Part shown: positions 7,992 through 27,866 of the stretch, one piece after another
Numbering within the stretch: position 1 is the stretch's first letter
How the letters are laid out: every line of letters begins with the position of its first letter
Assembly (NCBI GenBank): GCA_035444285.1
Contig: DAOMOK010000025.1
Span: 7,506-71,505, forward strand
DNA length: 64,000 bases
DNA from: Chloroflexota bacterium
GTDB lineage: Bacteria > Chloroflexota > Anaerolineae > Promineifilales > Promineifilaceae
Direction of reading: 5' to 3'
Translations under genes and position numbers: made by a program
The notes under the pieces: generated by a model
Told to the model about the DNA's origin: nothing
Database searches by the model: none
Seen by the model: only the letters and a program-made list of their open reading frames with translations

Positions 7992-8563
7992 TTACCCAGC
8001 CTTCTTCAATAGCAAAGGAATGCCAATCAGGAGCGGCATGAGGTGATGGGTAATGGGGTAATAGATGTCGCCTGGCGTGATGATAAAAAAAACGACCAGC
8101 AAGCCCAGGTTAAATGCGATGGTCGTCCAACCAATCCAGGATGGCAGCATCTTCGCCTGGAGCAATGCGCCCCCGATAGCCGCCTGGCCCAGAAAGGCAA
8201 GTATTACGTAGACGACGATGAGCGGAGAGGAAGGTATGCGCATCGCTTCGGCCGCCGCCAGCAAGACGGCTCCGAAGAAATAGGCACTGGCACCCAACCG
8301 CGCCAGTACACGGCCGTTGGTATCTTGAAGTGTCGCCTCAAGCAGCACAAATCCGAGCGCGGTAAGGATGACTGCCGCCAGGATGGATCCACGTTCCCAC
8401 ACGAAGAGCGCCGGGCTGTGGGGCGCAGGCTGTGGGGCGCACCTCCCTGGACTCCATTCCGGCTGTTAAACAGGTACAGGCCGAGCGCCAGAGGGAGAAT
8501 AGCGGCAACTAGCAAGGCGCCTGTTACTCTTTCTTCCGTCCAAAACGCCTGGTTTGTGTTCAT
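7992..8563 (-). pseudogene. Membrane-protein paralog disrupted by a 14-bp tandem duplication
   Basis: The N-terminal frame (MNTNQAFWTEERVTGALLV...) and the C-terminal frame (WERGSILAAVILTALG...) are in different phases. They are separated by GGCTGTGGGGCGCA x2 at 8414-8441. Removing one copy joins them in frame. Confidence 0.65.
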
Positions 8564-8609
8564 GATCCTTTCCTCTCTCCTTTCGTGTCTTATCTCGCTC
8601 GTGATGGTT

Positions 8610-9242
8610 CTATGGCCACAGCAGGGCCACACCGATGGCGGCCGGCATGATGAAGGGGATGGCCGGTGCCCCGACCCCAACCAGCCACCCGGCGAAACAC
8701 AGAGTGCTCCAGCCAATCGCCGCCCAGCCCAGCGAGGGCGGCAGCAGGCCGGTACGCAGGATGCCCCATCCGATTAAGATCATCGCCACAAAACTCCCTG
8801 CATAGCCCAGGCGAAAAGCGCCATCGGTCGCATCGCGTAACGGCGGATAAATCTCCGGGATGCTTTCGGTGCGCCCCGCCTCCTCCGCTGCCCAGGTGGT
8901 CAGGCCCACGTGGAAGGCTCCATGCAGAATGCCGGTAAGACCGGTTACAAGTGCGAGCGTAAAGGCCAACAGCGCCTGTTGTTCCTCCCCGGCCCGGGCC
9001 AGTAGGCGGGCCAATAGTGCAAACCCCAACAACGGGAAAATCCAGGTGACCGAGTAGATCTCGTTCAACAGCCGGAATGTATCGGCATAGGGGGCCATCG
9101 CTGCCAGCGCGCCTCCCACCGCCGCAAAGCCGGATGCCGCCCCGTTGACAATCATGATCACAGCCGCCAGCAAGCCGATCAGCAGGCCGCTAACCAGCAG
9201 GCTGCCCGTTACTCTTTCTTCCGTCCAAAATGCCTGGTTCAT
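8610..9242 (-). CDS. Membrane protein, intact paralog of 7992-8563
   Basis: Start at MNQAFWTEERVTGSLLV (9242) mirrors the N-terminus of the pseudogene. C-terminal LLPPSLGWAAIGWS motif. Confidence 0.65.
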   Translation of the reverse strand: MNQAFWTEERVTGSLLVSGLLIGLLAAVIMIVNGAASGFAAVGGALAAMAPYADTFRLLNEIYSVTWIFPLLGFALLARLLARAGEEQQALLAFTLALVTGLTGILHGAFHVGLTTWAAEEAGRTESIPEIYPPLRDATDGAFRLGYAGSFVAMILIGWGILRTGLLPPSLGWAAIGWSTLCFAGWLVGVGAPAIPFIMPAAIGVALLWP

Positions 9243-9285
9243 ATTTAGACTCCATTCTCCATTGGCCCAGACTGAGCCTTTACGA

Positions 9286-10200
9286 CTATTGGGATTCGTA
9301 ACCATTTTCCAGCGGCGGCAGTGATTGCAGGTACAAAAAGATGGCTCTCAGCTCGTCGTCCGTTTGCCTTTGCATGTGGGCCAGCGCATTGGTCATCGGC
9401 TCGCACAGAGCGTGTCCGTCTGGCGTGATGCCGGTGCGGATGGTCTGGATGAACTCTTCCTCCGACCAGCCGGCCAGTTGTCCGCCTGGGGTCAAATTAC
9501 GGGCTGGCGAATGGTCGAGGCCAGCTGCGGTAGGCTGACCATTCAGTTCCTCGCCGTGACAACTACGGCAATGACCAATATCTACCAGGTATTGGCCATA
9601 TGCGGCCGTGACGCCCGGCGCAACGGCCGTTCGATTGGAAACCGTGTGGTCAATCAGCGCGGCGGGCACAACAACTGGCTCTATTATTACCATCGCATAC
9701 CCTAACGGCCCCAGGCGCTGCTCCGGCACCTCGTTGTCCACCGGCTCCAGCGATTGAAGATAAGCCAGCATCGCGCCCAGGTCTTCGTCAGGCAGCGTAT
9801 GGTAGGTATTCGATGGCATCAACAAGAGGGATTTACCGTCTGTGCCTACGCCATGGCGGATAGCCCGCACCCAATCTTCTTCGCTGAAGTGGGTGCCGGC
9901 GCCCCCGGCTCCGGCCGTCAGGTTGGAGCCGTAAAAGGTTCCTATAGCGGGGTCATCTACCAGTAACATGCCGCCCAGGTTATCGCCATGACACTCCGTG
10001 CAGCCGGCAATGGCCCACACCAGAGGCTCGCCGCGGTCAATGGCCGCCTCATCGTCGGGAATGACTACGGCCGTAACCGGCACATCATAGCTCTGGTTAA
10101 TCTTTGAAGAGGCCGTAACATAACCAACAACAGCCGCTACTACAACCAGCCCCACCAGCCCGGCGAAGATGATGCCTATCCATTTCAATACTTTTTTCAT
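9286..10200 (-). CDS. Membrane-anchored dihaem c-type cytochrome
   Basis: N-terminal TM helix plus two CXXCH motifs (CTECH, CRSCH), each followed by a cytochrome c-like segment. Confidence 0.85.
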   Translation of the reverse strand: MKKVLKWIGIIFAGLVGLVVVAAVVGYVTASSKINQSYDVPVTAVVIPDDEAAIDRGEPLVWAIAGCTECHGDNLGGMLLVDDPAIGTFYGSNLTAGAGGAGTHFSEEDWVRAIRHGVGTDGKSLLLMPSNTYHTLPDEDLGAMLAYLQSLEPVDNEVPEQRLGPLGYAMVIIEPVVVPAALIDHTVSNRTAVAPGVTAAYGQYLVDIGHCRSCHGEELNGQPTAAGLDHSPARNLTPGGQLAGWSEEEFIQTIRTGITPDGHALCEPMTNALAHMQRQTDDELRAIFLYLQSLPPLENGYESQ

Positions 10201-10240
10201 CTTTCACCCTCGTTTGAGCCTGCCTTTTGCCTGGCAGGCC

Positions 10241-10447
10241 CTATTCTGGCTTCTCATTTTCGGTCTGGTCGGCAGGCTGGCCGGTTTGCTGCCGCAGAAA
10301 GCGGAACAACTCTTTCAGGGTGGCAAAGTTGGTACGCTCGCCGCTGTGCGGGCTTTCCAATGAGGCGCGCCAGATAGTTTTGTCTTTGTCTCCAGCCAGC
10401 CACAGTCGCAACAGATAAGATTGGTAGGCTGACGGCCGTTTGCTCAT
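10241..10447 (-). CDS. Small Trp-rich protein, unknown family (copy 1)
   Basis: 68 aa. YLLRLWLAGDKDKTIWRASLESPHSGERTNFATLKELFRFL aligns with the 69-aa ORF at 18799-19008. Divergent from the regulator at 10552. Confidence 0.55.
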   Translation of the reverse strand: MSKRPSAYQSYLLRLWLAGDKDKTIWRASLESPHSGERTNFATLKELFRFLRQQTGQPADQTENEKPE

Positions 10448-10536
10448 GCCTGCCAGCCTACCAAACAGGTCTCAGGAAAAACTCAGGAGGCTATCAGGCG
10501 AGAAAAAGTGAGTGTAAAAAACTCGCATCACCACGT

Positions 10537-10542
10537 TATAAT
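10537..10542 (+). promoter_or_regulatory. TATAAT -10 box 9 nt upstream of the regulator ATG (possible leaderless mRNA)
   Basis: cgtTATAATgagccaatcATG has no Shine-Dalgarno between the box and the ATG at 10552. Confidence 0.3.
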
Positions 10543-10551
10543 GAGCCAATC

Positions 10552-13500
10552 ATGACTCGCCTTTCCCTTTCTCTCCTGGGAAGCTGGCAGGCAACGCTAA
10601 ATGGAGAACCCATCACCGCTTTTGAATCGGATAAGGTTCGGGCTTTGCTGGCCTATCTGGCCGTGGAATCCGACCGGCCGCATCGCCGGGAAAGCCTGAC
10701 TGCATTGTTCTGGCCGGAACGGCCGGAGCGCAACGCCCGCCAAAATTTGAGCCAGGCATTGTTTAACCTGCGCCAGGCGATTGCAGACCGGGAGGCCAGG
10801 CCACCTTTCCTGCTCGTCTTACAACAGACAATCCAGTTCAACGGCGCAGCCGATTGCTGGCTCGACGTGACAACATTCGAGGAGCTGATAGCTGCTGCCA
10901 GACAACACAGGCATGAGGAACCGGCGCTCTGTGGCCCATGCTTGAAACGGTTAGAACGCGCCATTGCCCATTATCGGGGGGATTTCCTGGCCGGCTTTTC
11001 CCTGCCAGACAGCATCCCCTTTGACGAGTGGGCTTTACTCAAACGCGAACAGTTGCAGCGATTGGTTTTAGAAGCTCTGTTTACACTGACGGAGGCCTAC
11101 GAAGTTTACGGGACTGTTGACCTTGCACTGTCCTATGCCCGGCGGCTGGTGGAACTGGACCCCTGGCATGAAGAAGGGCAGCAACGTCTGCTGCGCCTGC
11201 TGGCGCTCAATGGCCTGCGGAATGAGGCGCTGACTCAGTATGAAAAGTTTCGCCAACTGCTCGGGCAAGAATTTGGCATCGAACCGGCGGCCAGGGCACA
11301 AACGCTGGCCGAAGCCATCCGTTCCGGAGAACTGGAAAAGGAAGCGGCAAGTCTCAGAATTGACAAACCACGTCAGAACCTTCCAGGGCAGCTAACATCC
11401 TTTATTGGTCGTGAGCCCGAGTTGGAAAGGATTAAGGAAAAGTTTGCGGATCAGGATTGCCGTCTGCTGACGCTGGTTGGCCCAGGCGGGATCGGCAAAA
11501 CCAGGCTGGCCGTGCAGGTTGCAGCCAGTCTGCTGGATCAGTACCTCCACGGGGTTTGGTTTGTGGACCTGTCGGCCAATACGGAGCCAGAGCAAGTGCT
11601 GGCAAGTGTGGCCAATACCCTCGGCATAAACGAAGTCGCCAGCGAGCCGCGCCTGAAGACCCTCCAGCGAGCTTTACGCCAGAAACAAATCTTTCTCTTG
11701 CTCGACAACTTTGAACATGTCATTGAAGCGGCGACTGACGTGAGTGAACTGCTGGCTGCTGCGCCAGGTCTCACCCTGATGGTGACCAGCCGGGAGGTAT
11801 TGCGCCTGGAAGGAGAACACGTTTATCTGGTGCTGCCGCTGGGGCTGCCTGAGGAGCAACGGCCGTTCCCGATGGCCGCCCTTTCCCAATATGAATCTGT
11901 GCGCCTTTTCCTGGACCGGGTGGGCGCCGTTAATCCGGCTTTTGCCCTGACGGAAGAGAATGCAACGGCCGTGGCCGAGATCTGCCTCCGCCTGGAAGGG
12001 TTGCCCCTGGCCATCGAGTTGGCCGCCGGGCGATCCCGGCTGTTTACCCCAGAGCAGTTGTTGGCGCAGCTCAAAAACCGACTGCGGACGCTGGTTGGTG
12101 GGTCGCGTAACCTGTCCCACCGGCAGCAGACGATCTGGAACACTATCGAATGGAGTTACCAGTTACTAGATGAGGGTGAAAGACTCCTTTTTGCCCGGCT
12201 GGGTGCCTTTGCGGGCGGCTGGACGTTGGAGGCAGCCGAATCGGTATGCGCCTCAAGTTTGCCCATGGATGTCCTCAGTGGTCTGGAATCCCTGCTGGAC
12301 AAGAGCCTCATCCGCCAAAGCAAGGCTGGAGCCGGTGGGCCACGTTTCACCATGCTGGAAACCATCCGCGAGTTTGCCGTCGAAAAACTCGTAGAAAGTG
12401 AGGAGCAGCCTGCCATACACCGCCGACATACCGCCTATTTTCTGGAGTGGATTCACCGAACACCGACATATTGGGGCAAATTGACACATCACATACAAGC
12501 GCCAGAGGTGGAAAATGTGCGTGCAATTATGCGCCGGGGGCTGACTTCAGGGGAATTGGCGGCGCCAGTGGAGCTTGTTTGCTGGATGGTCCGCCTATGG
12601 GAAGGGCGCGGCTATGCAGTGGAGATGGGTAACTGGCTGGAACTGGTTTTGGCCGATGAGAGCAGTAGAGTTAGCCTGCCCCTAAGGTTGTATGCGCTTG
12701 CTTTGCGCATCGCGGGTAATTTACAAGGTCTCTCAACATTGGATTTACAGAAAGCATACCGATATTATGAACAGAGCCTGATGATTTCCCGAGAAGAACA
12801 AGACCATCGGATGGCAGCAGCCGCTCTTTCCAACCTGGCCAATCTTGATGCCAGGCTGGGCAACTATTTGCTGGCCCGAACCCGCAATGAAGAGGCATTG
12901 GCCTTTTTGGAGAAATCTGGTCCGCTGAGTAAGAGTAACGTGCAGCCTGTGCGAATAGTCCTGGGGAATCTGGCGGAACAGCTGGCTGAAGAGGGGGCTT
13001 TTGAAGTGGCCTGGGTGCATGCTGAAAAAGCTTTGCAACTTGCCGAAGAATTGGAACACGAGGGTGGAGTTGCGATTGTGTTGGCCACCATGGGAATCAT
13101 TGCTATACGTCAGGAAAAGTATGAGCCGGCCCGTTTGTATTTAGAGCAAGCCCTGGCTACCTGGGATGAGCAACAAAACACCTATAGACGGACAGAGATA
13201 TGGGGATTGCTGGGAACGCTGGCTTTGAGAGAGCATAACCTGGCGGATGCGGAACAACTGTTGCTGCAAGCGCTCTATTCCTGTGCCGAGCAACAGGTGC
13301 GCGACTTAGTCCCAACTATCCTTGACCGGCTGGCGGAGCTTAGATTCACTCAGGGATATGCCATAGAGGCAGTTTGCATTTGTGCGGCTGTGGACGCTTT
13401 CTACAAACAGCACGGGTTGGTGCGTCCACCCGAGGAAATGCCAAATTACGAGCAGATTCTTGCCTCCGCTCGTCAACAGCTTGGCGAAGCAGCTTTTGCC

Positions 13501-13581
13501 TCTGCTTGGCAAGAAGGCAAGTCGTGGGAATTGTTCGATCTGGCCGACAACATAGTGGGCAAGCAAAGCGGGCGGACATGA
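10552..13581 (+). CDS. BTAD/SARP winged-helix + NB-ARC-type ATPase + TPR transcriptional regulator (STAND class)
   Basis: wHTH KVRALLAYLAVESDRPHRRESLTALFWPE. BTAD EEGQQRLLRLLALNGLRNEALTQYEKFRQLLGQEFGIEP. Walker A LVGPGGIGKTRLAV and Walker B FLLLDNFEH. About 400-aa TPR-like tail. Confidence 0.9.
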   Translation: MTRLSLSLLGSWQATLNGEPITAFESDKVRALLAYLAVESDRPHRRESLTALFWPERPERNARQNLSQALFNLRQAIADREARPPFLLVLQQTIQFNGAADCWLDVTTFEELIAAARQHRHEEPALCGPCLKRLERAIAHYRGDFLAGFSLPDSIPFDEWALLKREQLQRLVLEALFTLTEAYEVYGTVDLALSYARRLVELDPWHEEGQQRLLRLLALNGLRNEALTQYEKFRQLLGQEFGIEPAARAQTLAEAIRSGELEKEAASLRIDKPRQNLPGQLTSFIGREPELERIKEKFADQDCRLLTLVGPGGIGKTRLAVQVAASLLDQYLHGVWFVDLSANTEPEQVLASVANTLGINEVASEPRLKTLQRALRQKQIFLLLDNFEHVIEAATDVSELLAAAPGLTLMVTSREVLRLEGEHVYLVLPLGLPEEQRPFPMAALSQYESVRLFLDRVGAVNPAFALTEENATAVAEICLRLEGLPLAIELAAGRSRLFTPEQLLAQLKNRLRTLVGGSRNLSHRQQTIWNTIEWSYQLLDEGERLLFARLGAFAGGWTLEAAESVCASSLPMDVLSGLESLLDKSLIRQSKAGAGGPRFTMLETIREFAVEKLVESEEQPAIHRRHTAYFLEWIHRTPTYWGKLTHHIQAPEVENVRAIMRRGLTSGELAAPVELVCWMVRLWEGRGYAVEMGNWLELVLADESSRVSLPLRLYALALRIAGNLQGLSTLDLQKAYRYYEQSLMISREEQDHRMAAAALSNLANLDARLGNYLLARTRNEEALAFLEKSGPLSKSNVQPVRIVLGNLAEQLAEEGAFEVAWVHAEKALQLAEELEHEGGVAIVLATMGIIAIRQEKYEPARLYLEQALATWDEQQNTYRRTEIWGLLGTLALREHNLADAEQLLLQALYSCAEQQVRDLVPTILDRLAELRFTQGYAIEAVCICAAVDAFYKQHGLVRPPEEMPNYEQILASARQQLGEAAFASAWQEGKSWELFDLADNIVGKQSGRT

Positions 13582-13634
13582 GCATGACTCGCCTCGCCCT
13601 TTCTCTCCTGGGAAGCTGGCAAGTGAAGCTGTGA
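13578..13634 (+). pseudogene. Duplicated 5' end of a BTAD regulator gene, 18-codon stub
   Basis: MSMTRLALSLLGSWQVKL*. 36 of the first 38 nt from the ATG at 13584 are identical to 10552-10589. The stub overlaps the stop codon of the full-length gene. Confidence 0.6.
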
Positions 13635-13691
13635 CCCTCCCCGAAAAAGTGGATAACCAGTTAAGGCCAGGTATACTTTTTCGGGGGAGGG
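13635..13691. repeat. Long inverted repeat between convergent genes
   Basis: CCCTCCCCGAAAAAGT, a 24-nt loop, then ACTTTTTCGGGGGAGGG (16-bp arms, one extra G). Confidence 0.6.
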
Positions 13692-13819
13692 CGAAGGCAA
13701 CGGCGCGTCGAACAATGGACGAATGAGAGACATCGTTTCGGAGCGATTCAGCGGATAGCGCTTTCCCAAATCTCCATGTCAAAGACCATGTCTGTGTCCC
13801 ATTTCCGTTCCGATCCCGG

Positions 13820-16800
13820 TCAACCCCTGGCAACTACCGGCAGATACAGATCCATGGGCGCAAACTCATACGCCCCCATATCACAGCGCGCTTGCCCGTC
13901 CAGATCGCCATCCACCGGTCGGGCCACGCCTCGCTGGTCGGTTCCCGTCTGGCAGGCGCCGGCATCAATGGCCGGGCTGCCACCGCGCAGGGCTTGTGTG
14001 GGTGGCGCACCGTTGTCAGACAGCAAGGGTAGCAGGCGTGGATTCTGGCCGATGATGTTGCCCACTGTACTGCCACTAATCGTGCAATCGCTGACGTCGT
14101 CAACCAGGTTGTAGCCCTGAGAAGTAAAGCCGTAGCCACAATTGGGGCCGGCAACGGCCGCGCTATTCCCGGCCAGGATCGTGTTGCTGAGCGTAAATTC
14201 AGCCGGGCCGCCATTGAGACCGCCACCGCTGGCGGTGGCGTGGTTATGGCTGATGGTAACGTGGGTCAACATATTTGTACCGCCACCGCCAATGCCCCCG
14301 CCCGTACCAGCCTCATTCCCACTGATGGTGACGTTGGTGAGGGTTGCCGTTCCCTGGTTGTGCAGGCCGCCGCCGGAGCCGCCATTGCCCCGGTTGCCGA
14401 CAAGGGCGCTGTTGTTTACGGTCAGGTTGCCCTGATTCCAAATGCCGCCGCCGGATACAGCATCGTTGTGGCTGACAGTGACGCCATTAAGGATGAGCGT
14501 GCCGTTATTCAGGATGCCGCCGCCAGAACCGCCCGGTTCCTGGCCACGGGTGAGCGTCAACTGGTTGAGGGTGACGTTGGCGCCATTGTTGATGGTCAGG
14601 ACACGGCCGTTGCCCTGCCCGGCCAGAATCGTCTCCCCTTGCCCCAACCCGTTAATAGTCAGGTTGCCACTGATTACCATCGGCGCATCCAGCAGATAGG
14701 TCTGGTAGTTCAGGGCGATGGTCTGGTGGCCGGGCGTGGCATTGGCCTGCTCGATGGCTGCCCGCAGGCTGCAAACGCCGTCGGCCGTCTGGCATTGGTT
14801 GTCGTTGGGATCGGCGTCCGGCATATCGGCGATGGTGGTGACGATGAAGTCGGCCGGGGCGACGACGGTTGTCAGGACAAACCCACCCTGTGTCTCGGCC
14901 TGGTTGGCCTGCGCCAGCCGGAAGGAAGCCTCGGTTTCCAACCGGTCACCCGGCTGTAGCCCGGCGCTGAGTGTGGTGTGTATCTGGATCACGGCCGTAT
15001 CCCCCACCGGCAGCGCGTTCATCTGGCAGGTCACAATGCCCGCCGCCTGAGTGCAGCTTCCATCACTGCTGCTGGCCGATCCATAGTTTAGCCGCACATC
15101 CAGGGTGGCGCTGACCACCAGGTTGGTGGCCGTCAGCCCGCCGCCGACTGCCGGCGGGTTGTTGGTCAGCGACAGGGTGTGGGCCAGTGGTTGGTCGCTG
15201 GCTACCGGGTTGGACGAGGCGGTCACATCCAGCAGCAAGTCGGTCATCATCGCCACCGTCACCGGGATCGTTTTGCAGGCCGTCTGGGAAACGGCCGTTG
15301 GTTGTTTGTTACCGTCACCGTCAATGACCACCTGGTCGGTGACACACATCTCAACGTTGAAACTGCCGTTTTGGGTGAAAATGTGTTCGGCCGTGACCGC
15401 GCCATAACCACCCACCCCCTGGCTCAGAATGGGGCCGGTGACCGTGCCATCTTCCAAAATGCGTCCTTCCGGCTCCACCGGACTGCCATCGCCCCAATTT
15501 ACCGTCACCATATGCTGGTCGGGAATATCCGGGTCGTAGAAATCCACCTTGAACATCGTCTTGAAACCCCGGCCAATCTGCATGTCGTCCAGGCTGACCA
15601 GGCGCGTCAGGTCCAAACCACCACCCAATCGGTAAGCAAAGTTCTGGTTCGCCTCCGGGAAACGGGGGGCGTCGTGGATGGGCGCAATGGTCACCGTCAC
15701 CGTTTCCGGCGTGGACAGGAAGTGGGTATCATGGGCGACAAAGGTGAAGGTATCCAGGCCGTGGAAATCCAGGTTTGGTGTGTAAGTACGGTTGGCGCCG
15801 CTGCCGCTAATTGTGCCATGCGCCGGCGGCGTATCAATGTGGAAGGTCAGTGTATCCAGCGGCTCGTCGGGGTCATAGCCGCTCAACACCACGGTTGTGG
15901 GCACATCCTCTACAGTGGCAAAGGCCAATCCACGGTCGGCCTGGGGCGGGCGAAAATTACGACTGACGGCGATTTGCACCGTCGCCGGGGCACTGTTGTC
16001 CAGCCCATCGGTCACGCCAAAGGTAAAGCTGTCGGTACCCACAAAGTTGTTGTCCGACTGGTAAACAATGCGGGCGCTGGTGGGCGAGAGGGGCGTCAGC
16101 GGCGTCGTCTCGAAGACGTGCAGCAGGTCGGTGTTCTCGTCCAGCACGTAGAAATTAGTGGAATTGACCGTCACCTGTTTGGGCTGGCCGAAATCGCCCA
16201 GGACAAAGCAGGAGCCGTCACATTCAGAGATGGCCTGCCCGGCGAAGTGGCCTTCAGGAGTAAAACGCTGCACACGCTGGTTAAAGTAATCGGTGACATA
16301 GAGAATGTCGTTACCATCCAGGGCGATACCGCGCGGGCTGGCGAATTGGCCGGGGCCGCTGCCCTCCGTTTGTCCGCCGCCATTGATACCACAGGTGGCG
16401 TCGGTGCAGCTAAAACCAAAACTGCGCTGGTGGGCAATGTCGCAGCCAGGGCCAAAGTCACATTTGCCCAGCCAGCCAATCAGTTCGCCGGGGGTGAAAT
16501 TACCATGAGCATCCAGCACCGCCGGCCCCCATTTGTAGATGCGGTTTGGGCCGTCCCAACTACCGTTTTTACCCGTTGAGGCATACAGATTGCCCGCCGA
16601 ATCGAGGGCCAGGTTAGTCAAGACCGCGTCGGGGTGAGAGTAATCGGCCAGCAGCGTCGGATCGTCGGGGCCGGTAGTGTCGTACAGATATAACTCGGCC
16701 ACACCGGAAGAGATATAGCCACTGGTGACGTAGAGAATGCCCTGCCCGTCAATGAGGGCGTGCCTTGGCTGGCCGAATTGCGGCGTGGCATCGTCCATGC

Positions 16801-18802
16801 GATGCTGGACAATCAGGTTCAAATCCATATCGTATTGGCGTACCCAACTGAAGGTGCCGCCGACATTATGGCTGGCGGTGAAAAGGGAACCCAGACGCCA
16901 ATCAATATAGATACCCTTCACGTCAAAGGAGGAGGAAACCTGGTCCCAGGTACCATCAGGCCGGAATACCGCCAGCCGGTAAGAGGGGTAAGGGACGCCA
17001 AAAGAATCGCACCAGACCATGCCCTGATCGTGGACGTAGACGACGCCGTCGTCGTTAACAGCCATGAAGGTGGCGTCAACCGGCCAGTTCGTGGGTATGT
17101 ATTGCTGCCGGTGGTCGGGGTCCTGGCAATATTCCAAAAAGGAAATATCTTGAAAGTTGGACAGGCGGTAATCCTGGATGAAATAGGGGTAGAGCGGGGC
17201 GTGGAAGAAGCCGTTGCCTGGTTGTTCTCTGATTTGGAACCAGAGCGGGTCATGATCGGGGTCTTGGGCGGTAAGGGTGAGGGTGATCGGTTCGTAGGCG
17301 ATGGCTTGCGGGATATTGCCGCCAGTCTGGTTATGGGCGGTGGGTGTGTGGTTGGTGCCGGGGGCTTTGATGTTGACCACCTGCACGGCCGTGGCACTGT
17401 TGTTGGCGCTGTCGGTGGCTGTCCAGGTCACGGCCGTTTGCCCTGCCGGAAAGCGAATTTCATCTCCGGTGCAAACAACCCCTGGCCGGCTGCATCCATT
17501 GTGGCTGACGGTTGGATTTAAGTCGGCCAGGTCAAAAACGGCCGGATGGCCCAGGTTAATGGTTGCTGGAATCGTCGCCGTCTCGGTCACAATCGGCGGC
17601 GGGGCCAAAATCGTAGGGGCCAGGGTGTCCACTACAGTCAGCGTTTGCGGCAAGGTGGCCGCATTGTAGCCCCCTTGCAAGTTGTGTGGGCCACGGTCGC
17701 GCACTTCCCAGGTGATGGTATAGCTCTCATTGACGTGGGCAAATTCTGGGGCGTTTGACGAACTCAGCCGGGGATAGGGGTCGCAGTTATCGCTGACGCT
17801 AATGGTACGCTGCAAAACCGGCAGGTAGGTGCGGCGCGAAACGCCACCCGGCTCGGTTGCCTCAATGGTGACGTTGGACATGGATGTGCCTATCGTTGGG
17901 GCTACAAAGTCGGTGACGACCACGTACTGCAATTCCTCGTTATAGATGCCATGCGGGTTGGGATGGGCGGCAACCAGGAAACGCAGCGTTTTGTCGCCTA
18001 AAAACCTGGTCACGGAGAGCGCCGTTCTGAGCCTCGCACGATCCTGCCCCAGACCGGGGATGTAAATGAAGACGTAATCCATGAAGTGGATTAACGTCTC
18101 GCCGCGCCAGACGACCGGGTTGACGCCGGTAGGAAAGGTGATCTGCGACCCGTTAAAGTGGCCGCCGTGTTGGGCAGAAACGTCCACGTCGGTACTCCAA
18201 TGAACCAGTTCCGGTGTGCCCAGCTCACCCCAATCGGTCCAGGGGAAGATTTCGCTGAAAGGGGAGGGGAAGCCGAAGAGGTTGCTGTATTTACCGCTCA
18301 TGGTGGTTTGAGCAAAGGTGGCCTGGCAGTTGGCGACATTGGTGACGGTGCGTGTAGGCGGGGGATTGAGGTAAGGAGCGCAATGTTTCAGCCCCAGGTT
18401 GGCCAGGTAGGCGGCAACCGAAGGGTTGAAGTCAAGGGGAGGCGGCAGGAAGGTGAGGGGGAAAGAAAGGTTGTAGGTTCCGCCCAAGGGGAGGATGCAG
18501 GCCAGGGCGGCGGTGTTGCTCCAGTCGCCCAGATCGTTGATGGCTTCGACGCTGAGGGGACCAGGATAGGCGTTGGCGGCCACGGCCGTGGCCGCCAACG
18601 GTTCTGCCATCTTCATTGTCCACAAATCCCAAACCGCCTCCTGTTCGCCGATGTGGATGAGGGGGGCAGCGGCGGTGGGTGTGGGTTCGGGCACGGCGGC
18701 CGTGGCTACGGCCGTTGTCGTTTCCATCTGTCCTTGCAGGTGCAGCGGTGTTATCAATAAGGCAGTCAGAAAGAGAATGAAAATAAAAAGTGCGCGTTTC
18801 AT
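13820..18802 (-). CDS. Giant secreted multidomain protein (HYR/Ig-like, NHL, cadherin-like, PKD, DUF11-like, C-terminal parallel beta-helix)
   Basis: Signal peptide MKRALFIFILFLTALLITPLHLQG. NHL repeat GIALDGNDILYVTDYFNQRVQRF. Cadherin/VCBS-like DTFTFVAHDTHFLSTPETVTVTI. PKD-like VNWGDGSP...HIFTQNGSFNV. C-terminal CSLRAAIEQAN plus GGG[IL].N.G.L repeats, ending DQRGVARP...CDMGAYEF. Confidence 0.9.
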   Translation of the reverse strand: MKRALFIFILFLTALLITPLHLQGQMETTTAVATAAVPEPTPTAAAPLIHIGEQEAVWDLWTMKMAEPLAATAVAANAYPGPLSVEAINDLGDWSNTAALACILPLGGTYNLSFPLTFLPPPLDFNPSVAAYLANLGLKHCAPYLNPPPTRTVTNVANCQATFAQTTMSGKYSNLFGFPSPFSEIFPWTDWGELGTPELVHWSTDVDVSAQHGGHFNGSQITFPTGVNPVVWRGETLIHFMDYVFIYIPGLGQDRARLRTALSVTRFLGDKTLRFLVAAHPNPHGIYNEELQYVVVTDFVAPTIGTSMSNVTIEATEPGGVSRRTYLPVLQRTISVSDNCDPYPRLSSSNAPEFAHVNESYTITWEVRDRGPHNLQGGYNAATLPQTLTVVDTLAPTILAPPPIVTETATIPATINLGHPAVFDLADLNPTVSHNGCSRPGVVCTGDEIRFPAGQTAVTWTATDSANNSATAVQVVNIKAPGTNHTPTAHNQTGGNIPQAIAYEPITLTLTAQDPDHDPLWFQIREQPGNGFFHAPLYPYFIQDYRLSNFQDISFLEYCQDPDHRQQYIPTNWPVDATFMAVNDDGVVYVHDQGMVWCDSFGVPYPSYRLAVFRPDGTWDQVSSSFDVKGIYIDWRLGSLFTASHNVGGTFSWVRQYDMDLNLIVQHRMDDATPQFGQPRHALIDGQGILYVTSGYISSGVAELYLYDTTGPDDPTLLADYSHPDAVLTNLALDSAGNLYASTGKNGSWDGPNRIYKWGPAVLDAHGNFTPGELIGWLGKCDFGPGCDIAHQRSFGFSCTDATCGINGGGQTEGSGPGQFASPRGIALDGNDILYVTDYFNQRVQRFTPEGHFAGQAISECDGSCFVLGDFGQPKQVTVNSTNFYVLDENTDLLHVFETTPLTPLSPTSARIVYQSDNNFVGTDSFTFGVTDGLDNSAPATVQIAVSRNFRPPQADRGLAFATVEDVPTTVVLSGYDPDEPLDTLTFHIDTPPAHGTISGSGANRTYTPNLDFHGLDTFTFVAHDTHFLSTPETVTVTIAPIHDAPRFPEANQNFAYRLGGGLDLTRLVSLDDMQIGRGFKTMFKVDFYDPDIPDQHMVTVNWGDGSPVEPEGRILEDGTVTGPILSQGVGGYGAVTAEHIFTQNGSFNVEMCVTDQVVIDGDGNKQPTAVSQTACKTIPVTVAMMTDLLLDVTASSNPVASDQPLAHTLSLTNNPPAVGGGLTATNLVVSATLDVRLNYGSASSSDGSCTQAAGIVTCQMNALPVGDTAVIQIHTTLSAGLQPGDRLETEASFRLAQANQAETQGGFVLTTVVAPADFIVTTIADMPDADPNDNQCQTADGVCSLRAAIEQANATPGHQTIALNYQTYLLDAPMVISGNLTINGLGQGETILAGQGNGRVLTINNGANVTLNQLTLTRGQEPGGSGGGILNNGTLILNGVTVSHNDAVSGGGIWNQGNLTVNNSALVGNRGNGGSGGGLHNQGTATLTNVTISGNEAGTGGGIGGGGTNMLTHVTISHNHATASGGGLNGGPAEFTLSNTILAGNSAAVAGPNCGYGFTSQGYNLVDDVSDCTISGSTVGNIIGQNPRLLPLLSDNGAPPTQALRGGSPAIDAGACQTGTDQRGVARPVDGDLDGQARCDMGAYEFAPMDLYLPVVARG

Positions 18803-19008
18803 TTGTTGTTACCTCCAGGGGGGTCTGTTTCCGAATCAAACACATGTGCCAAAGAAGCCAGTAACCCCGCTACATTGGCAAAACTCTGTCGCTCCTCCGT
18901 ATCCAGCCATTGCAGGTGGAAACGCCAGAGGCGCCGGGACTCAGCGTCATCCTGTTCTGACCAACAGCGCAGGATGAGGGTGCGATGGGTCGGTGTGCGG
19001 TCGTTCAT
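18799..19008 (-). CDS. Small Trp-rich protein, unknown family (copy 2)
   Basis: 69 aa. LILRCWSEQDDAESRRLWRFHLQWLDTEERQSFANVAGLLASL aligns with 10241-10447. Its TGA overlaps the ATG of the giant gene (ATGA). Confidence 0.55.
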   Translation of the reverse strand: MNDRTPTHRTLILRCWSEQDDAESRRLWRFHLQWLDTEERQSFANVAGLLASLAHVFDSETDPPGGNNK

Positions 19009-19036
19009 GTTGTGTCTCTTTTCTGACCATGTTTGC

Positions 19037-19042
19037 TATAAT
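19037..19042 (+). promoter_or_regulatory. TATAAT -10 box upstream of the AbiE-like pair
   Basis: gcTATAATga lies in the 147-bp divergent spacer. Confidence 0.3.
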
Positions 19043-19154
19043 GACCAGATAAGCAGCAACATACACGGCTATTCTCAATTCAGTCTCAATTGGGAGACAG
19101 GCGGCTAAAAGTTGGTCTTTTCGCCAAAGCCTGACTTCTCCACAAAGTGTAGGT

Positions 19155-19436
19155 GTGATGAGACCAATACCCATCAACGAAAAACTGATGTGGGATACCG
19201 ATATTCCCCCCGATGCCCAAACTAACGAAGCCTTCCGCAAATGGTATATCAAGCGGGTGTTGACGCATGGAACAGCCGCCGACATACATGCCATAGGCTT
19301 AGAAACAATTCACCACTATCTGCCACATCTCCATCTTCCAGCCGATATAGATGAATTTTGGCAGTGGTATTTCAATGAACCACCCGTTCAGGAACGCTAT
19401 GGAAATCTTGACACCATTCCAGAATCAATTACTTAA
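19155..19436 (+). CDS. Small protein upstream of the AbiEii-like toxin (putative antitoxin partner)
   Basis: 93 aa. LMWDTDIP...FRKWYIKRVLTHGTAADI resembles, from memory, the short proteins that precede AbiEii-type NTases. Overlaps the next ORF by 38 nt. Confidence 0.5.
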   Translation: MMRPIPINEKLMWDTDIPPDAQTNEAFRKWYIKRVLTHGTAADIHAIGLETIHHYLPHLHLPADIDEFWQWYFNEPPVQERYGNLDTIPESIT

Positions 19437-20049
19437 AGCGATTGGCAGTTCTAATTTGGCGCAGAGTTTCTATCTAACAGGCGGAACCGCTCTGTCTGCT
19501 TTTTATCTACACCACCGCTTTTCAGAAGACCTCGACTTTTTTTCTGCTGATCCCAATGCTGTACGCCTGGTTCGCCCTGAACTGGAAAGAGTCGCATCTA
19601 ACCTCGGGGGACAACTTGAATTCAGCCGCACGTTCAATACCTTTGTTGAATGCTTTATTACTGCTCAGGATGGCGAAATAGTAAAGCTTGATTTTGCCCA
19701 AGATACGCCCTATCGATTGCAGCCGACGCAACTCAATTCTGTATTTGGCGTTCAGCTTGATAGTGCGTTAGATATTGCCGCAAATAAGCTGGCAGCCTTG
19801 TTTGACCGCGCTGCTGAAAAGGATTTCGTGGACATCTTTTTTGTCCACCGCGAATTGATTCAATTCGCTGAGTTGTTGCCGTTGGCGCGTGAAAAACAGA
19901 TGGGCATGGATGATTATTGGCTAGCAATTGCCTTACAGCGTGTCCGCCAGGTTGAAATACTACCGCGCATGATCAAACCGGTAGTCTTGGCTGATTTACG
20001 AACCTTCTTCTTACAGTTAGCACGGGCGTTAATGGCTAAGGGGGTATAA
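19399..20049 (+). CDS. Nucleotidyltransferase AbiEii/AbiGii toxin family protein
   Basis: FYLTGGTALSAFYLHHRFSEDLDFF is the family hallmark. Start set at MEILTPFQNQLL (19399). Confidence 0.85.
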   Translation: MEILTPFQNQLLKAIGSSNLAQSFYLTGGTALSAFYLHHRFSEDLDFFSADPNAVRLVRPELERVASNLGGQLEFSRTFNTFVECFITAQDGEIVKLDFAQDTPYRLQPTQLNSVFGVQLDSALDIAANKLAALFDRAAEKDFVDIFFVHRELIQFAELLPLAREKQMGMDDYWLAIALQRVRQVEILPRMIKPVVLADLRTFFLQLARALMAKGV

Positions 20050-20055
20050 GCCCTC

Positions 20056-23000
20056 ATGCTCAAATTCCACTTGCTGGGGCGGCCACAAATTAATCTGGGC
20101 GACCAGCCAGTTACCGACTTTGCCTCGGAAAAAGAGCTGCTGCTGCTCTGTTACCTGGCCTGCAATCCGGGTGAATACAGCCGACCACAGCTGGCCGGGC
20201 TACTGTGGGGGGAGATGCGCGAGGAGCGGGCGCGGGCTAACCTGAGTACGGCCGTATACAACCTGCACCAACTATTACCCACTGCCATCCAGGTCACCCG
20301 CAAAACGGCCGTTTTCAACCCCACCCAACCCGTCTGGCTGGATACGGCCGTTCTCCAGCAGGCTCTTAACGAAGATGCCGAGAACCTCGAAGCAGCGGTT
20401 GCCCGTTATCGCGGCCCATTTTTAGAAGGCATTTACCCACAGGATGCGCCGGAACTGGAAACATGGTTACAACAGGAGCGAGAACGATGGCGGTTGTTGG
20501 CCCTGACCGCCCTGGATCGCCTGGCTCAACAGCAAAGCCAGGGCGGGGAATGGGAAAAGGCCATCACCACTCTGCGCCGCCTGCTCGACCTGGAACCCTG
20601 GCGCGAAGAATCCCATCGGGTGCTCATGCGGCTGTTGGCCCGCACCGGCCAGTTCAACGCCGCTTTGGTGCAGTACGAAACCTGCCGCACTCTGCTTGAG
20701 CAAGAGTTAGGCGTGGAACCCATGGCGGAGACAACGGCCGTTTACCACCGCATCCAGACCGCCCGCCAGCGCCCCCAAACACACCATCTGCCCCCGCAAC
20801 CCACCCCTCTGGTCGGTCGCGCCGCCGAATTGGGCCGGCTTTTTGTCTGGTTCAATGACCCGTCGCGGCGGCTGATCACCCTGGCCGGGCCGGGTGGCAG
20901 CGGCAAAACGCGGCTGGCCCTGGCCGCCGCCGGCGATCAGGCTTACGCCTTTCTGGATGGCGTCCACTTTGTTCCCCTGGTCGAGGTAACCAACCACGCC
21001 GGACTGGTACAGGCCATCGCCACCGCGCTGGGGCTGACCCTGACCGCCGGTGAGGAGCAGCCCCAGCTGCTCGACTATCTGCGCCACAAAGAGATGCTGC
21101 TGTTATTGGACAATGTGGAGCAGGCATTGGCCCCCACCGCCGATCTGGTCTTGACCCTGCTGGAAAATGCGTCCCGGCTGCGCCTGATCGTCACCTCGCG
21201 GGAATATCTGCAACTGCGTTGGGAGACGCGCCTGTCTTTAGGCGGACTGCCTGTTCCCCCCGATGCAGCGGCCGATATGGCTGCCTTTGACGCCGTGCGC
21301 CTGTTTGTGCAGGTGGGGCAGCGGGTGTGTCCCGATTTCAATCTGACGGGGCAGGAAACGGCCGTTGCCGACCTCTGCCGCCTGGTGGAGGGCATACCGC
21401 TGGCGCTGGAACTGGCCGCTTCTCTGCTGAACGCCGAAGCCCCCCCCCAACTGCTGGCGCAAATCCGGCAAAGTTTCGACCGGCTGGCGACCACGATGCA
21501 CGACGTGCCCGCCCGCCACCGCAGCCTGCGCGCTGTATTTGACTATTCCTGGGCGCTGCTGGCGGCCGCGCAGCAGGCGGCGCTGCCCCGCCTGGCGCTG
21601 TTTCATGGCGGCTTTACGCCTCAGGCGGCGCTGGCTGTGGCCGCCGCGTCACCGGTGCTGTTGGCGGGTCTGGCCGCTAAATCGCTCATCCACACCGAGG
21701 CTAACGGCCGTTACAGCCTGCACGAACTCATCCGCCACTATGCCCTGGAGCGGCTGGCCGATGTGCCGCCAGCCACTGCCGCCCACGCCGCCTATTTTGC
21801 GGCACAGCTACAGCAGGCAGCGCAAACCTTGCATGGCTCAGCGCAAACGGCCGTTGCCCACCAACTGCTGGCCGATTTAGCCAATATCGAGGTGGGCTGG
21901 CAAACGGGAATTGCTGCCGCAGATGAAGATTTGCTGCGGGCAATGGCCCCCGGATTGGCCCGTTTTTATGTGGTAGCGGGTTTGTTTCAGGCAGGCGAGG
22001 CCGCTTTTGGTGCAGCCCTGGTCAGTCTCGCGACTCCGGCTTTACAGGTGTACCACGCCATGTTTTTGTTGGAACGGCAGGAATATGAGGCAGCGGCAAC
22101 GGCCGTTGCCGCTGCCTCTGCCGGCCTGTCAGATCCCGTTCTGGTGGCCCAGGCGTATCTCATTACCGCCGCCACTTCTTTGCGTCAGGGAGATGTGGCC
22201 GCAGCCCACGGCGCGCTCACACAGGCGCTGGCCACGGCTGAAAAGGCCCAAATTCCCTGGCTAGAGGCGCAGGCGTGGCGTTTGTTTGGGCAGGTGAGTG
22301 AGCGCACAGGCGCGTATGCCCAGGCAGAAGAGGCGCTGCGCCAGGCGTTGGCCATCTACGAGACCAGTGGTGATCCCCTGGAACTGGCGCGTACTTACCA
22401 ATCATTGGCCGCTGTGCTCTTTCGGCGCGGTGACAATGTCGGCTCAAAGCAGCTCTTGGAAAAAGCGTTGGCGATACAGCGGCAAGTAGACCCCACCGGC
22501 TTGAGCAGCGCCCGCGTGTTGGTGGCGCTGGGGACTGTCGCCAGCAACCTGAACCAGGAAGAGCAGGCGGTCGCTTTTTTCCAGCAGTCTCTGGCTGTTT
22601 TTCGGCAGATGGGCGACCGGGCCAATGCGGCGCTGGCGGCTAATATGTTGGGACGCGGAGCGGCCTGGGATTACGACTTCAGCCGGGCGCGAAATTATTA
22701 CACGCAGGCGTTGGCCTGGTATGGGGAGATCGGGCAGCGCAAGGGGGTAGCGGACACGCAGCGTTATCTGGCTGACTTGGCTCTTACTCTGGGGCAATAT
22801 GAGGAGGCGCAGGCGCGATTAACGGCCGTTTTAGACACCTATCACGCCATTCAAGATAAACGCAGTGTCGGCACAACTCTGACCCGACTCTCCCTCCTCC
22901 ACCATCTTCAGGGCGACGAGCAAACGGCCGCCCAGCAGGCTGAGGCGGCGCTGGCTATCGCCGCCGAAATTGGCAATCCGCTGCTGCGGGCATATGGTCT

Positions 23001-23439
23001 GAGTTGTTTGGGCCATGCCTGGCGGGGGAAAAAATTGTGGGATCGGGCTACGGCCGTGTACGGCGACGCCATCAACCTCTGGCAAGAATTGGATATGACG
23101 GGGTTGCAAGCAGAGAATCAGGCGGCGCTGGCAACCGTCCACCACGCGGCCGGGCGGCCGGATAACGCCTGGTCCTTGCTGGAAACGGCCGTGGCTCACC
23201 TGGTCGCCAATCCTCAGCCTGATTGTGACACGCCGGGGCAGTTGTATCTGGACTGTGTTCTCTTGCTGCAAGCGAAAGGGGATGAAGCCCAGGCGGCCCA
23301 TCTTTGGCGGCAAGCGATTGCGGTCATCCGCCGGCAGGCCGATGGAATTGACGAGGTGCAAAGCCGGTTGGCTTTTCTGACGGGCATCCAGGTGCACCAG
23401 CGATTGTTCACTCTCGACCTGGCGCATAATCCTCAATAG
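20056..23439 (+). CDS. BTAD/SARP + NB-ARC-type ATPase + TPR regulator (STAND class)
   Basis: LLLLCYLACNPGEYSRPQLAGLLWGE. BTAD HRVLMRLLARTGQFNAALVQYETCRTLLEQELGVEP. Walker A LAGPGGSGKTRLAL and Walker B LLLLDNVEQ. About 550-aa TPR region. Starts 7 nt after the AbiEii stop. Confidence 0.9.
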   Translation: MLKFHLLGRPQINLGDQPVTDFASEKELLLLCYLACNPGEYSRPQLAGLLWGEMREERARANLSTAVYNLHQLLPTAIQVTRKTAVFNPTQPVWLDTAVLQQALNEDAENLEAAVARYRGPFLEGIYPQDAPELETWLQQERERWRLLALTALDRLAQQQSQGGEWEKAITTLRRLLDLEPWREESHRVLMRLLARTGQFNAALVQYETCRTLLEQELGVEPMAETTAVYHRIQTARQRPQTHHLPPQPTPLVGRAAELGRLFVWFNDPSRRLITLAGPGGSGKTRLALAAAGDQAYAFLDGVHFVPLVEVTNHAGLVQAIATALGLTLTAGEEQPQLLDYLRHKEMLLLLDNVEQALAPTADLVLTLLENASRLRLIVTSREYLQLRWETRLSLGGLPVPPDAAADMAAFDAVRLFVQVGQRVCPDFNLTGQETAVADLCRLVEGIPLALELAASLLNAEAPPQLLAQIRQSFDRLATTMHDVPARHRSLRAVFDYSWALLAAAQQAALPRLALFHGGFTPQAALAVAAASPVLLAGLAAKSLIHTEANGRYSLHELIRHYALERLADVPPATAAHAAYFAAQLQQAAQTLHGSAQTAVAHQLLADLANIEVGWQTGIAAADEDLLRAMAPGLARFYVVAGLFQAGEAAFGAALVSLATPALQVYHAMFLLERQEYEAAATAVAAASAGLSDPVLVAQAYLITAATSLRQGDVAAAHGALTQALATAEKAQIPWLEAQAWRLFGQVSERTGAYAQAEEALRQALAIYETSGDPLELARTYQSLAAVLFRRGDNVGSKQLLEKALAIQRQVDPTGLSSARVLVALGTVASNLNQEEQAVAFFQQSLAVFRQMGDRANAALAANMLGRGAAWDYDFSRARNYYTQALAWYGEIGQRKGVADTQRYLADLALTLGQYEEAQARLTAVLDTYHAIQDKRSVGTTLTRLSLLHHLQGDEQTAAQQAEAALAIAAEIGNPLLRAYGLSCLGHAWRGKKLWDRATAVYGDAINLWQELDMTGLQAENQAALATVHHAAGRPDNAWSLLETAVAHLVANPQPDCDTPGQLYLDCVLLLQAKGDEAQAAHLWRQAIAVIRRQADGIDEVQSRLAFLTGIQVHQRLFTLDLAHNPQ

Positions 23440-23584
23440 CAGGGAGAATGATGCAATGCGCGCCTGCGAGTCGGTCTCACAAATTTTAGGATTTATTTGT
23501 TGGGAAATTTTCTGTGTTTTCCAGCCTGCTGTCAGGTTCTTGTGTGTTTTCGTTGAAAGGCGGAGGCATCATTTTCTAACCGCT

Positions 23585-25552: not shown

Positions 25553-26227
25553 TCAAACATATCGTTTGTACCCCTCTAAATCCAGCCAAATGCGCTGAAA
25601 CAGCGTACTCACCTTCTTAATACCGTAGCACCGCCTCTTGATTACCTTCACTTTATTGTTCAATCCCTCCACAAAGCCGCTACTGGCCCGACGGATAAAG
25701 TAGTTGGCGATATAGGCCAAATGATGGCGCAAGCTCTTGATGAAGTCATCAAAACAAGTCAGGCTCGTTCGCTCCACTTTGGCTATCCACTTCAACAAAC
25801 GAGTTTCCGCCTGTTTGCGGCTCAGTTTCATCTCAAAAATCGCTGTCAGTTCCTGGCGTAGGGTGTAGGCCAGATGGAGGTGTGGTGAATGGGTCAGGAG
25901 GCGGCGCAGTTGGGCCTGTTGCCCTTCATCCAGGTCCTCGTGATTGTGCCGTAACAACCAGAGCGCCCCGGTAAAATCGGCTGTGTATGTTGCCGTGGCT
26001 AGCTCCTGTTTCAGACGACGCATCTCCTGTTTACGCAACTGGTCGAAACCGTCCCGATAATGTTGAGCCACATGAAAGCGATCTACCACGATGGCCGTTC
26101 CCTTCATCTCATGGCGGCTGATAAATTCAGCGATAGCCGTCAAGTAGCCTTCCCACATATCGGTGCAGAAGGTATGGATGGTGCGGCGTAGGCGCGCCGG
26201 TATCGTCTCCAAAAAGGCACTCACCAT
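25553..26227 (-). CDS. ISL3 transposase, C-terminal DDE part (-1 frame relative to the N-terminal part)
   Basis: FCTDMWEGYL...VVDRFHVAQH...FVEGLNNKVKVIKRRCYGI. Confidence 0.85.
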   Translation of the reverse strand: MVSAFLETIPARLRRTIHTFCTDMWEGYLTAIAEFISRHEMKGTAIVVDRFHVAQHYRDGFDQLRKQEMRRLKQELATATYTADFTGALWLLRHNHEDLDEGQQAQLRRLLTHSPHLHLAYTLRQELTAIFEMKLSRKQAETRLLKWIAKVERTSLTCFDDFIKSLRHHLAYIANYFIRRASSGFVEGLNNKVKVIKRRCYGIKKVSTLFQRIWLDLEGYKRYV

Positions 26228-27848: not shown

Positions 27849-27866
27849 GGAGGAATCGGAACAACC

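Follow-up and report, generated by a model that had tools for sequence, protein, structure and literature searches.

Small proteins encoded next to AfsR-like regulators in Chloroflexota, usually ahead of exported cargo, form a very large family

The stretch of Chloroflexota DNA analyzed here, 64,000 nucleotides of contig DAOMOK010000025.1 (positions 7,506 to 71,505) and referred to below as the window, carries two small genes, at 10241-10447 and 18799-19008, whose products belong to a new and very large family of small proteins that marks the likely direct target of AfsR-like regulators in this phylum. The two genes lie in two separate regulatory cassettes arranged in tandem, at 8610-13581 and at 13820-23439. 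Such a cassette is conserved among related loci and combines an AfsR-type regulator, a promoter with the repeat layout of SARP-regulated genes (SARP box) and the small gene; in most cases exported cargo is encoded there as well. Its architecture is well supported, whereas what the small protein does biochemically can only be guessed at with good reason. With confidence somewhat better than even, we regard the small gene as the direct target of the AfsR-like regulator, heading an operon for exported cargo and encoding a protein that feeds back on the regulator.

That the two open reading frames (ORFs) are related genes had been proposed in an earlier note on this DNA, and this proposal stands. 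Copy 1 (10241-10447, minus strand, 68 aa) and copy 2 (18799-19008, minus strand, 69 aa) have the coordinates and sequences given there, and their paralogy is supported by BLASTP (28% identity over 53 aa, E = 6e-6) as well as by a hidden Markov model (HMM). A model built from 19 copy-1 relatives, with copy 2 left out, recovered copy 2 at E = 2.7e-6 among the 1,269 reading-frame segments of the window, and the second-best segment reached only E = 1.9. Regular-expression and HMM scans of all six frames of the window found no further family copies beyond these two. Judged by their codons, both ORFs are under purifying selection, with ratios of nonsynonymous to synonymous substitution (dN/dS) of 0.48 for copy 1 against its orthologue in a related locus, L001, and of 0.20 and 0.08 for copy 2 against its orthologues.

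Copy 1 has at least 250 homologous clusters, all of 58-120 aa and called "hypothetical" wherever they are named, and its exact sequence is also present in an NCBI Chloroflexota metagenome-assembled genome (MAG). Copy 2 belongs to a divergent subfamily of its own, with 24 clusters and the pattern LILRCW...WRFHLQW...EERQSFA. The earlier note had suggested a profile search for homologues beyond this genome, and these turned out to be abundant: a family profile of 33 members, scored against 1.84 billion representatives (clusters at 50% identity), matched 7,242 of them at E ≤ 1e-3 and 2,935 at E ≤ 1e-10. Nearly all of the best 150 of these 7,242 stand alone, with lengths of 64-150 aa, and natural tandem duplications account for a few. 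The top profile match, P0145 (3802 aa, 35 stretches), was set aside as a translated repeat artefact. In a second sample, a degenerate DNA pattern for WRASLE..ER..FA..L..L was applied to one genome per GTDB species and returned 118 stretches, all 118 of which hold a true family member. These stretches come almost entirely from Chloroflexota, including Anaerolineae, Caldilineae, Thermoflexales, Ardenticatenaceae, Chloroflexia and Roseiflexaceae, and several MAGs gave two loci. The occurrence in cyanobacteria that the earlier note had mentioned as well could not be verified.

The family could not be assigned to any named domain, as had also been remarked earlier. Pfam gave no match for either copy at E ≤ 10, and hence none to MbtH-like or DUF397 families, NCBIfam a chance match only (E = 0.12), PADLOC only a chance match of copy 2 to Cas11e (E = 0.002), and neither PHROGs (E ≤ 0.1) nor a sequence-profile search of the PDB gave any match. 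A tblastn search of the PLSDB plasmids with the family consensus found no match either, and full-text searches with motif strings, and for BTAD together with a small protein in Chloroflexi, returned irrelevant papers only. On the sequence evidence, this is a very large, unannotated family of small proteins, mainly from Chloroflexota.

The residues that are invariant in the family are L13, R14, W16, W26, R27, L30, F41 and L51, and they fall within a core (residues 12-55 of copy 1) that is followed by an acidic tail. AlphaFold2 predicts for copy 1 three strands (12-18, 25-31 and 38-41) and a helix (44-55), with a predicted local distance difference test score (pLDDT) of 85-91 in the core and a disordered tail. 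Pooled over 34 independent pairs, dN/dS is 0.15 in the core and 0.32 in the tail, and the tails are 33% identical. We thus model the small protein as cytoplasmic, with about 55 residues folded into a beta-beta-beta-alpha core and an acidic tail that is disordered and evolves fast. Foldseek comparison of the single-domain model with the PDB gave no significant neighbor, the best being YaiA at E = 0.13; the PUR, Cren7 and double-stranded-RNA-binding-domain (dsRBD) folds followed at E of about 0.7-1 with template-modeling (TM) scores of 0.3-0.4, which are not significant. The model of a natural tandem-domain protein found no match in the PDB by Foldseek and, because of its low confidence (pLDDT 66), is uninformative on dimerization.

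The small gene is closely associated with a regulator that carries a BTAD domain. In the GTDB sample, 95 small genes come with 1.2 kb or more of upstream sequence; a divergent BTAD ORF is found no farther than 1 kb away for 76 of them and no farther than 500 bp away for 70, at a median gap of 173 bp. Wherever the small gene has enough upstream flank, every BTAD neighbor lies upstream and is divergent; the single exception to this rule, L046, has only 45 bp of upstream sequence. The co-occurrence that the earlier note had proposed to look for is therefore present, and the association of small protein and regulator that it had suspected is genuine and strongly conserved across loci. In the 62 loci with flanking sequence on both sides, 29 have both a regulator and an exported cargo, 19 only the regulator, 6 only the cargo and 8 neither, so that a regulator is present in 48 of 62 and exported cargo in 35 of 62, which makes the regulator the more constant partner. 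A distant branch of the family, with the pattern "FIVRL..WRGEVEH", also adjoins STAND regulators. In L135 (2793-5870), a member of this branch is divergent from a 1025-aa AAA_16-TPR (MalT-like) STAND protein. In L139 (6536-10621), a BTAD-AAA_16-TPR regulator is followed co-directionally by the small gene, and the cargo comprises two caspase-like proteins (Peptidase_C14), one of which is a fusion with Amidase_2.

The relatives of the two copies show which regulator belongs to which small gene. Among copy-1 relatives on metagenome contigs, the regulator is directly divergent with the same 104-bp spacer in L001 and L003 and with a 52-bp spacer in L006, and in L005 and L007 a BTAD-STAND regulator lies a few genes upstream. 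Copy-2 relatives occur in only two arrangements. In one (L013-L016), a BTAD-NB-ARC-TPR regulator preceded by an AbiEii gene and an ORF of about 92 aa is divergent from the small gene and an overlapping giant gene (1652-1663 aa); in the other (L010-L012), a regulator preceded by a 54-aa ORF is divergent from the small gene, a gene for a thiol-cytolysin/laminin-G protein and a gene for a Kelch protein. This assigns copy 2 in the window to regulator 2 (20056-23439, plus strand, 1127 aa), not to regulator 1.

Cassette 1 in the window accordingly consists of regulator 1 (10552-13581, plus strand, 1009 aa) and, reading leftward from the shared spacer, copy 1, a cytochrome c gene and a membrane protein gene. 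As the earlier note had described, copy 1 is divergent from this BTAD-ATPase-TPR regulator, which starts at 10552, and the spacer between them is 104 bp. The cargo of the cassette is a di-haem cytochrome c of 304 aa (9286-10200, minus strand), which carries either a membrane anchor or a signal segment at its N-terminus and whose gene lies 40 bp downstream of copy 1. A 231-aa membrane protein with no Pfam match (8610-9305, minus strand) overlaps the end of the cytochrome c gene and, judged by this overlap alone, is probably the last gene of the cassette. Cassette 2 consists of regulator 2, with its AbiEii gene, and of copy 2 followed by the gene for a giant surface protein. This exported protein (13820-18802, minus strand, 1660 aa) has a signal peptide, NHL, cadherin-like/Big_9 and DUF11 domains and a Gly-rich, beta-helix-like C-terminal part, and copy 2 overlaps its gene by 4 nt (ATGA), as noted earlier; the overlap is kept in the orthologous loci L013-L016. 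Both regulators have BTAD, NB-ARC/NOD and C-terminal TPR domains according to Pfam, which is the architecture of AfsR-type "large SARP" proteins. Trans_reg_C is not listed by Pfam at E ≤ 0.001 for the regulators in the window, and a faint match is found in the BTAD protein of L005; the N-terminal 100 residues of the regulators align, with a conserved helix "..NL(S/R)xAL.NLRxA.".

The sequence between the divergent genes has the layout of a SARP promoter. When 82 unique upstream regions were compared, the only spacing with an enrichment of triple direct repeats was exactly 11 bp, with a mean best score of 3.39 versus 1.7-2.0 at spacings of 8-10 and 12-14 bp. At least five of seven columns are identical at the 11-bp spacing in 19 loci, compared with 0-1 loci at other spacings, and a -10-like hexamer follows the repeats at a distance of about 9 bp. 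In promoters of SARP regulators, the repeats are 11 or 22 bp apart, and 8 bp separate the 3' repeat from the -10 box; in the case of afsS, two 11-bp repeats occupy -40 to -19 and the -35 box is poor (PMC10936776). The regions upstream of the small genes match this published layout, including the weak or absent -35 element of promoters of the actII-ORF4/DnrI/AfsR type, and this match suggests that the repeats are binding sites through which the regulator would activate the small gene. These putative sites differ from those of the published promoters in that the repeat words in Chloroflexota are new and vary from cassette to cassette and that three or four repeats are common. A scan for consensus -35/-10 promoters found none in the spacer of either cassette, which fits dependence on an activator, although as negative evidence only.

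On the minus strand upstream of copy 1, three direct repeats (10470-10500) with CCTGA cores at 10472-76, 10483-87 and 10494-98, spaced by exactly 11 bp, read CGCCTGAtagc, CTCCTGAgttt and TTCCTGAgacc; they are followed by tgtttgg, the predicted -10 box TAGGCT (10455-10460), ggcaggc and the ATG, which puts 9 bp between the proximal heptamer and the -10 box and 7 nt between this box and the start codon. L001 keeps this layout, with CCTGACA, CCTGAGA and CCTGAGA as repeats and TAGAGT in the place of TAGGCT. The position of the predicted -10 box suggests that the copy-1 mRNA is leaderless or nearly so. Regulator 1 likewise has a predicted -10 box, TATAAT (10537-10542, plus strand), 9 nt before its ATG; the two genes facing each other across 10447-10552 both appear leaderless, and neither has a Shine-Dalgarno sequence. 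Upstream of copy 2, two direct repeats AATTGAGA (19073-19091, minus strand) lie 11 bp apart and are kept in orthologous loci, and the predicted -10 box TATGTT (19058-19063, minus strand) lies 9 nt downstream of the proximal repeat. The same repeats with a TATGCT box occur in L010, L013 and L014-L016, even though the cargo of L010 is different. In addition, a conserved TGcTATAAT on the plus strand (19035-19042) lies inside the predicted 5' untranslated region of copy 2. It is possible that overlapping divergent promoters at 19035-19063 exclude each other and act as a switch between the operon of the regulator and that of its target.

The repeat word differs from cassette to cassette (CCTGAGA, AATTGAGA, TGCGTTT, CCACACG and others), and it covaries with the putative recognition helix of the regulator. 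Helices of the form ..L(S/N)QAL.. go with C[CT]TGA, those of the form ..LR[NRY].L.. with GCGTTT, and those of the form AL..LR[HY]AL with CCAC..G, in a comparison that is uncorrected for phylogeny.

The gene that follows the small gene typically encodes an exported protein. Of 73 next genes on the same strand, 54 (74%) open with a hydrophobic segment that resembles a signal peptide, compared with 73 of 397 control ORFs of the same loci (18%; odds ratio 12.6, p = 3e-20). The folds are diverse and include FG-GAP, NHL, LVIVD and PD40 propellers, beta-helices, cadherin-like/Big_9/DUF11 proteins, a solute-binding protein and many proteins with no Pfam match. The gap between small gene and cargo gene ranges from -28 to more than 600 bp across loci. 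In L013-L016, orthologues of the giant protein (1652-1663 aa) occupy the same position as in the window. In L001, where the small protein is 75% identical to copy 1 and the CCTGAGA repeats are the same, the cargo is an unrelated secreted protein of 188 aa (8486-9052) in place of the cytochrome c at 9286-10200, and comparison of the two loci shows that the cargo has been swapped while regulator, promoter and small gene stayed.

The mechanism that we propose rests on three parts. The regulator would combine an OmpR-like/BTAD DNA-binding part with an NB-ARC switch and a TPR sensor; the back-to-back promoter, which has no -35 box, would offer it two to four direct repeats at 11 bp, ending about 9 bp from the -10 box; and the small gene would be transcribed first, usually followed by the gene of an exported or surface protein of almost any fold. 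Once the regulator is switched on, its SARP domains would align on the repeats and RNA polymerase would be recruited, so that the small protein and the cargo are produced together. The small protein would then bind the regulator, or the complex of regulator and polymerase, and tune its activity. We infer this feedback from three considerations, namely that the regulator is the one invariant neighbor, that the small protein is predicted to be cytoplasmic and has no enzymatic or DNA-binding signature, and that there is a precedent in the pair of AfsR and AfsS of Streptomyces.

AfsR has the same architecture as the regulators described here, that is, SARP/BTAD, an NB-ARC-type NOD and TPR (PMC10936776). 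It directly activates afsS, whose 63-aa product binds AfsR with a dissociation constant of 4.7 uM and raises promoter occupancy (PMC10832544). AfsS is built of three or four 12-aa repeats that are needed for AfsR binding. The likeness extends to the gene for a protein of 60-70 aa that adjoins the regulator gene and to a promoter with 11-bp direct repeats abutting the -10 region and no usable -35 box. By analogy, the binding of AfsS and the resulting increase in occupancy provide the mechanism, and a possible sign of the feedback, that we propose for the small protein. The suggestion of the earlier note that the small protein is a co-factor or anti-factor of the regulator thus remains the best available hypothesis, supported by this precedent, although it was tied there to the wrong module boundaries. 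There are also differences. The genes afsR and afsS are arranged co-directionally, an order that is found in L139, whereas most pairs in Chloroflexota are divergent. AfsR and AfsS appear in the cited literature as a single global pair of Actinomycetota, whereas several of the Chloroflexota MAGs have at least two cassettes, and AfsS acts on antibiotic clusters, whereas the small gene heads an operon for an exported protein.

Several observations weigh against feedback on the regulator, or at least against an interface that is specific to the cognate pair. Both copies, and the family alignment as a whole, are devoid of internal 12-aa repeats and have a predicted beta-beta-beta-alpha fold, which sets them apart from AfsS as it has been described; the relationship is therefore one of analogy and not of family membership. 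The core of the small protein is almost invariant across paralogues, and its variable tail is weakly constrained. A partner shared by all cassettes, for instance RNA polymerase, a nucleic acid or the Sec route, accounts for an invariant core no less well than a cognate-specific one. About 20% of the loci lack a BTAD ORF at a distance of up to 1 kb; most of these have their small gene inside a longer co-directional operon. Pfam detected neither BTAD nor any other N-terminal DNA-binding domain in the regulator-like partner of L135, a hint that what stays constant in the partner may be its STAND/TPR part and not the SARP domain. In a mirror-tree comparison of 19 pairs, the small protein co-diverges with SARP at rho 0.46 and with NOD at rho 0.42 but not significantly with TPR (rho 0.17), and such co-divergence is expected for any co-inherited pair and cannot locate an interface.

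Other roles for the small protein have to be weighed against feedback on the regulator. It could be a cytoplasmic helper for the exported cargo, acting as a pre-export chaperone, a targeting factor or a translation-coupling partner, with a regulator that only transcribes it. The high proportion of downstream genes with a signal-peptide-like N-terminus (74%) and the conserved ATGA overlap of copy 2 with its cargo gene would agree with this role, and a near-invariant core could bind a feature that is common to cargoes, such as signal peptides or the Sec machinery. However, propellers, beta-helices, cadherin-like proteins, a solute-binding protein and a cytochrome c are unrelated in fold, a regulator and small gene with no exported gene (19 of 62 loci) are found more often than cargo with no regulator (6 of 62), and the gaps of -28 to more than 600 bp indicate that coupling is not general. 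It would also be hard to explain why a generic helper should be re-encoded at every cassette, and we consider this role unlikely. Equally, the small protein might bind nucleic acid at its own locus, either as an RNA factor for read-through or translation of long operons or as a DNA factor that acts at the repeat promoter independently of the regulator. Conserved Arg and Trp residues (R14, W16 and R27) would be exposed on the face of the sheet, judged by the strand alternation in the model, there is a weak fold likeness to the PUR repeat, Cren7 and dsRBD, and the natural tandem duplications recall the two-repeat PUR domain. This likeness is nevertheless not significant, either for the best structural match or for the nucleic-acid binders themselves, the tandem model has low confidence and no neighbor in the PDB, and the net charge is not strongly basic, with an acidic tail, so that a role of this kind appears doubtful to us.

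A third possibility is a signal of the PapR type. In RNPP pairs such as PlcR-PapR and Rap-Phr, a TPR-bearing regulator is found together with an adjacent small gene, and the PlcR regulon consists of secreted proteins. By extension, the C-terminal tail of the small protein would be released and sensed by the TPR domain of its cognate regulator. Here, too, a TPR regulator adjoins the small gene and a set of secreted proteins, and the tail is the variable, subfamily-specific part. The small protein has neither a signal peptide nor a hydrophobic segment, however, and the N-termini are hydrophilic (MSKRPSAYQS.., MNDRTPTHRT..), which makes a PapR-like pro-peptide unlikely. Furthermore, its conserved part is a folded domain and not a leader, the tail is weakly constrained (dN/dS 0.32, 33% identity) and does not covary with the TPR region, no peptidase or exporter is conserved in the cassettes, and the regulator, a STAND ATPase that has a SARP domain for DNA binding, is not a helix-turn-helix (HTH)-TPR protein; taken together, this leaves the signal reading with little probability. 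The earlier note had seen small protein, regulator, huge surface protein and small protein as a single module, in which regulator 1 and the giant protein would form one unit, flanked and served by both small proteins. Such a unit is favored only by the order of genes in this single window, and the reading does not hold, because each small gene pairs divergently with its own regulator in related loci: copy-2 orthologues always have their own regulator on the far side, and copy-1 orthologues occur without a giant protein. Regulator 1 and the giant gene are merely convergent neighbors, the apparent bracket is a product of two tandem cassettes that extend on either side beyond the span 10241-19008 considered in the earlier note, to the cytochrome c operon on the left and to regulator 2 on the right, and a shared unit is very improbable. 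The earlier note had also considered that the small ORFs might be untranslated leaders, and one could add that they arose by chance, given their small size and the absence of a Shine-Dalgarno sequence from copy 1. The latter is accounted for by a leaderless start. There are thousands of homologues with an invariant residue pattern, dN/dS is well below 1, the predicted fold is confident, and an Rfam scan of the window from 8000 to 24000 found no family; protein-like codon evolution and the empty Rfam scan lead us to reject both ideas, whose probability is close to nil. Two other candidates were dropped, namely a precursor of a ribosomally synthesized and post-translationally modified peptide (no modifying enzymes are conserved and there are no Cys/Ser/Thr-rich cores) and a toxin-immunity system (no single immunity fold could match a cargo of such diversity).

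Feedback on the AfsR-like regulator can also be compared with the WhiJ-BldB system of Streptomyces, in which a filamentous bacterium has many paralogous pairs of a regulator and a partner of about 70 aa that carries DUF397. The regulator there has an XRE-type HTH, whereas the small proteins described here have no DUF397 in the Pfam search mentioned above. A bolder version of feedback would make the small protein the allosteric ligand of its own NLR-like regulator, which transcribes the gene of its ligand and thereby forms a self-locking bistable switch. With dozens of cassettes per genome, each with a different exported protein, filamentous Chloroflexota would possess a combinatorial, heritable on/off repertoire of surface proteins, a protein-based phase variation built from STAND regulators. 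This is a speculative idea to which we assign a low probability.

AfsR-like STAND regulators are abundant and their targets and signals are mostly unassigned, as a 2026 preprint has pointed out for Actinomycetota. For a whole phylum, the cassettes described here provide a likely direct target of such regulators (the small gene and its cargo), a likely operator (the 11-bp repeats, with a word that covaries with the recognition helix) and a candidate protein partner. A family with 7,242 representatives at 50% identity has so far been covered by neither a Pfam nor an NCBIfam model, and the genomic context now offers a way to test what it does. Should the small protein indeed bind the regulator, the combination of an activator and a small feedback partner would have originated on two or more occasions, from small proteins without any sign of kinship. 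The cassettes would, in addition, supply a ready set of orthogonal activator/promoter pairs.

Finally, some further features of the window should be noted. Between the promoter region of copy 2 and regulator 2 lie a 93-aa ORF with no family match and a gene for an AbiEii-like, toxin-type nucleotidyltransferase (19351-20049), together at 19155-20049 on the plus strand and identified by Pfam and PADLOC; they apparently belong to the operon of the regulator. The same pair, a 92-aa ORF and an AbiEii protein of 220-228 aa, is carried by L014-L016. A third BTAD regulator (27801-31094, plus strand, BTAD-AAA_16-TPR) has no partner from the small family according to the regular-expression and HMM scans of the window, and it is divergent from a YdhR-like ORF of 120 aa (27344-27706, minus strand). 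This pairing indicates that the small protein is not used by every SARP-STAND regulator in the genome. Just upstream of this region, a 200-aa ORF with a Cys-rich N-terminal part (26221-26823, minus strand) may be a transposase fragment, which it resembles by eye.

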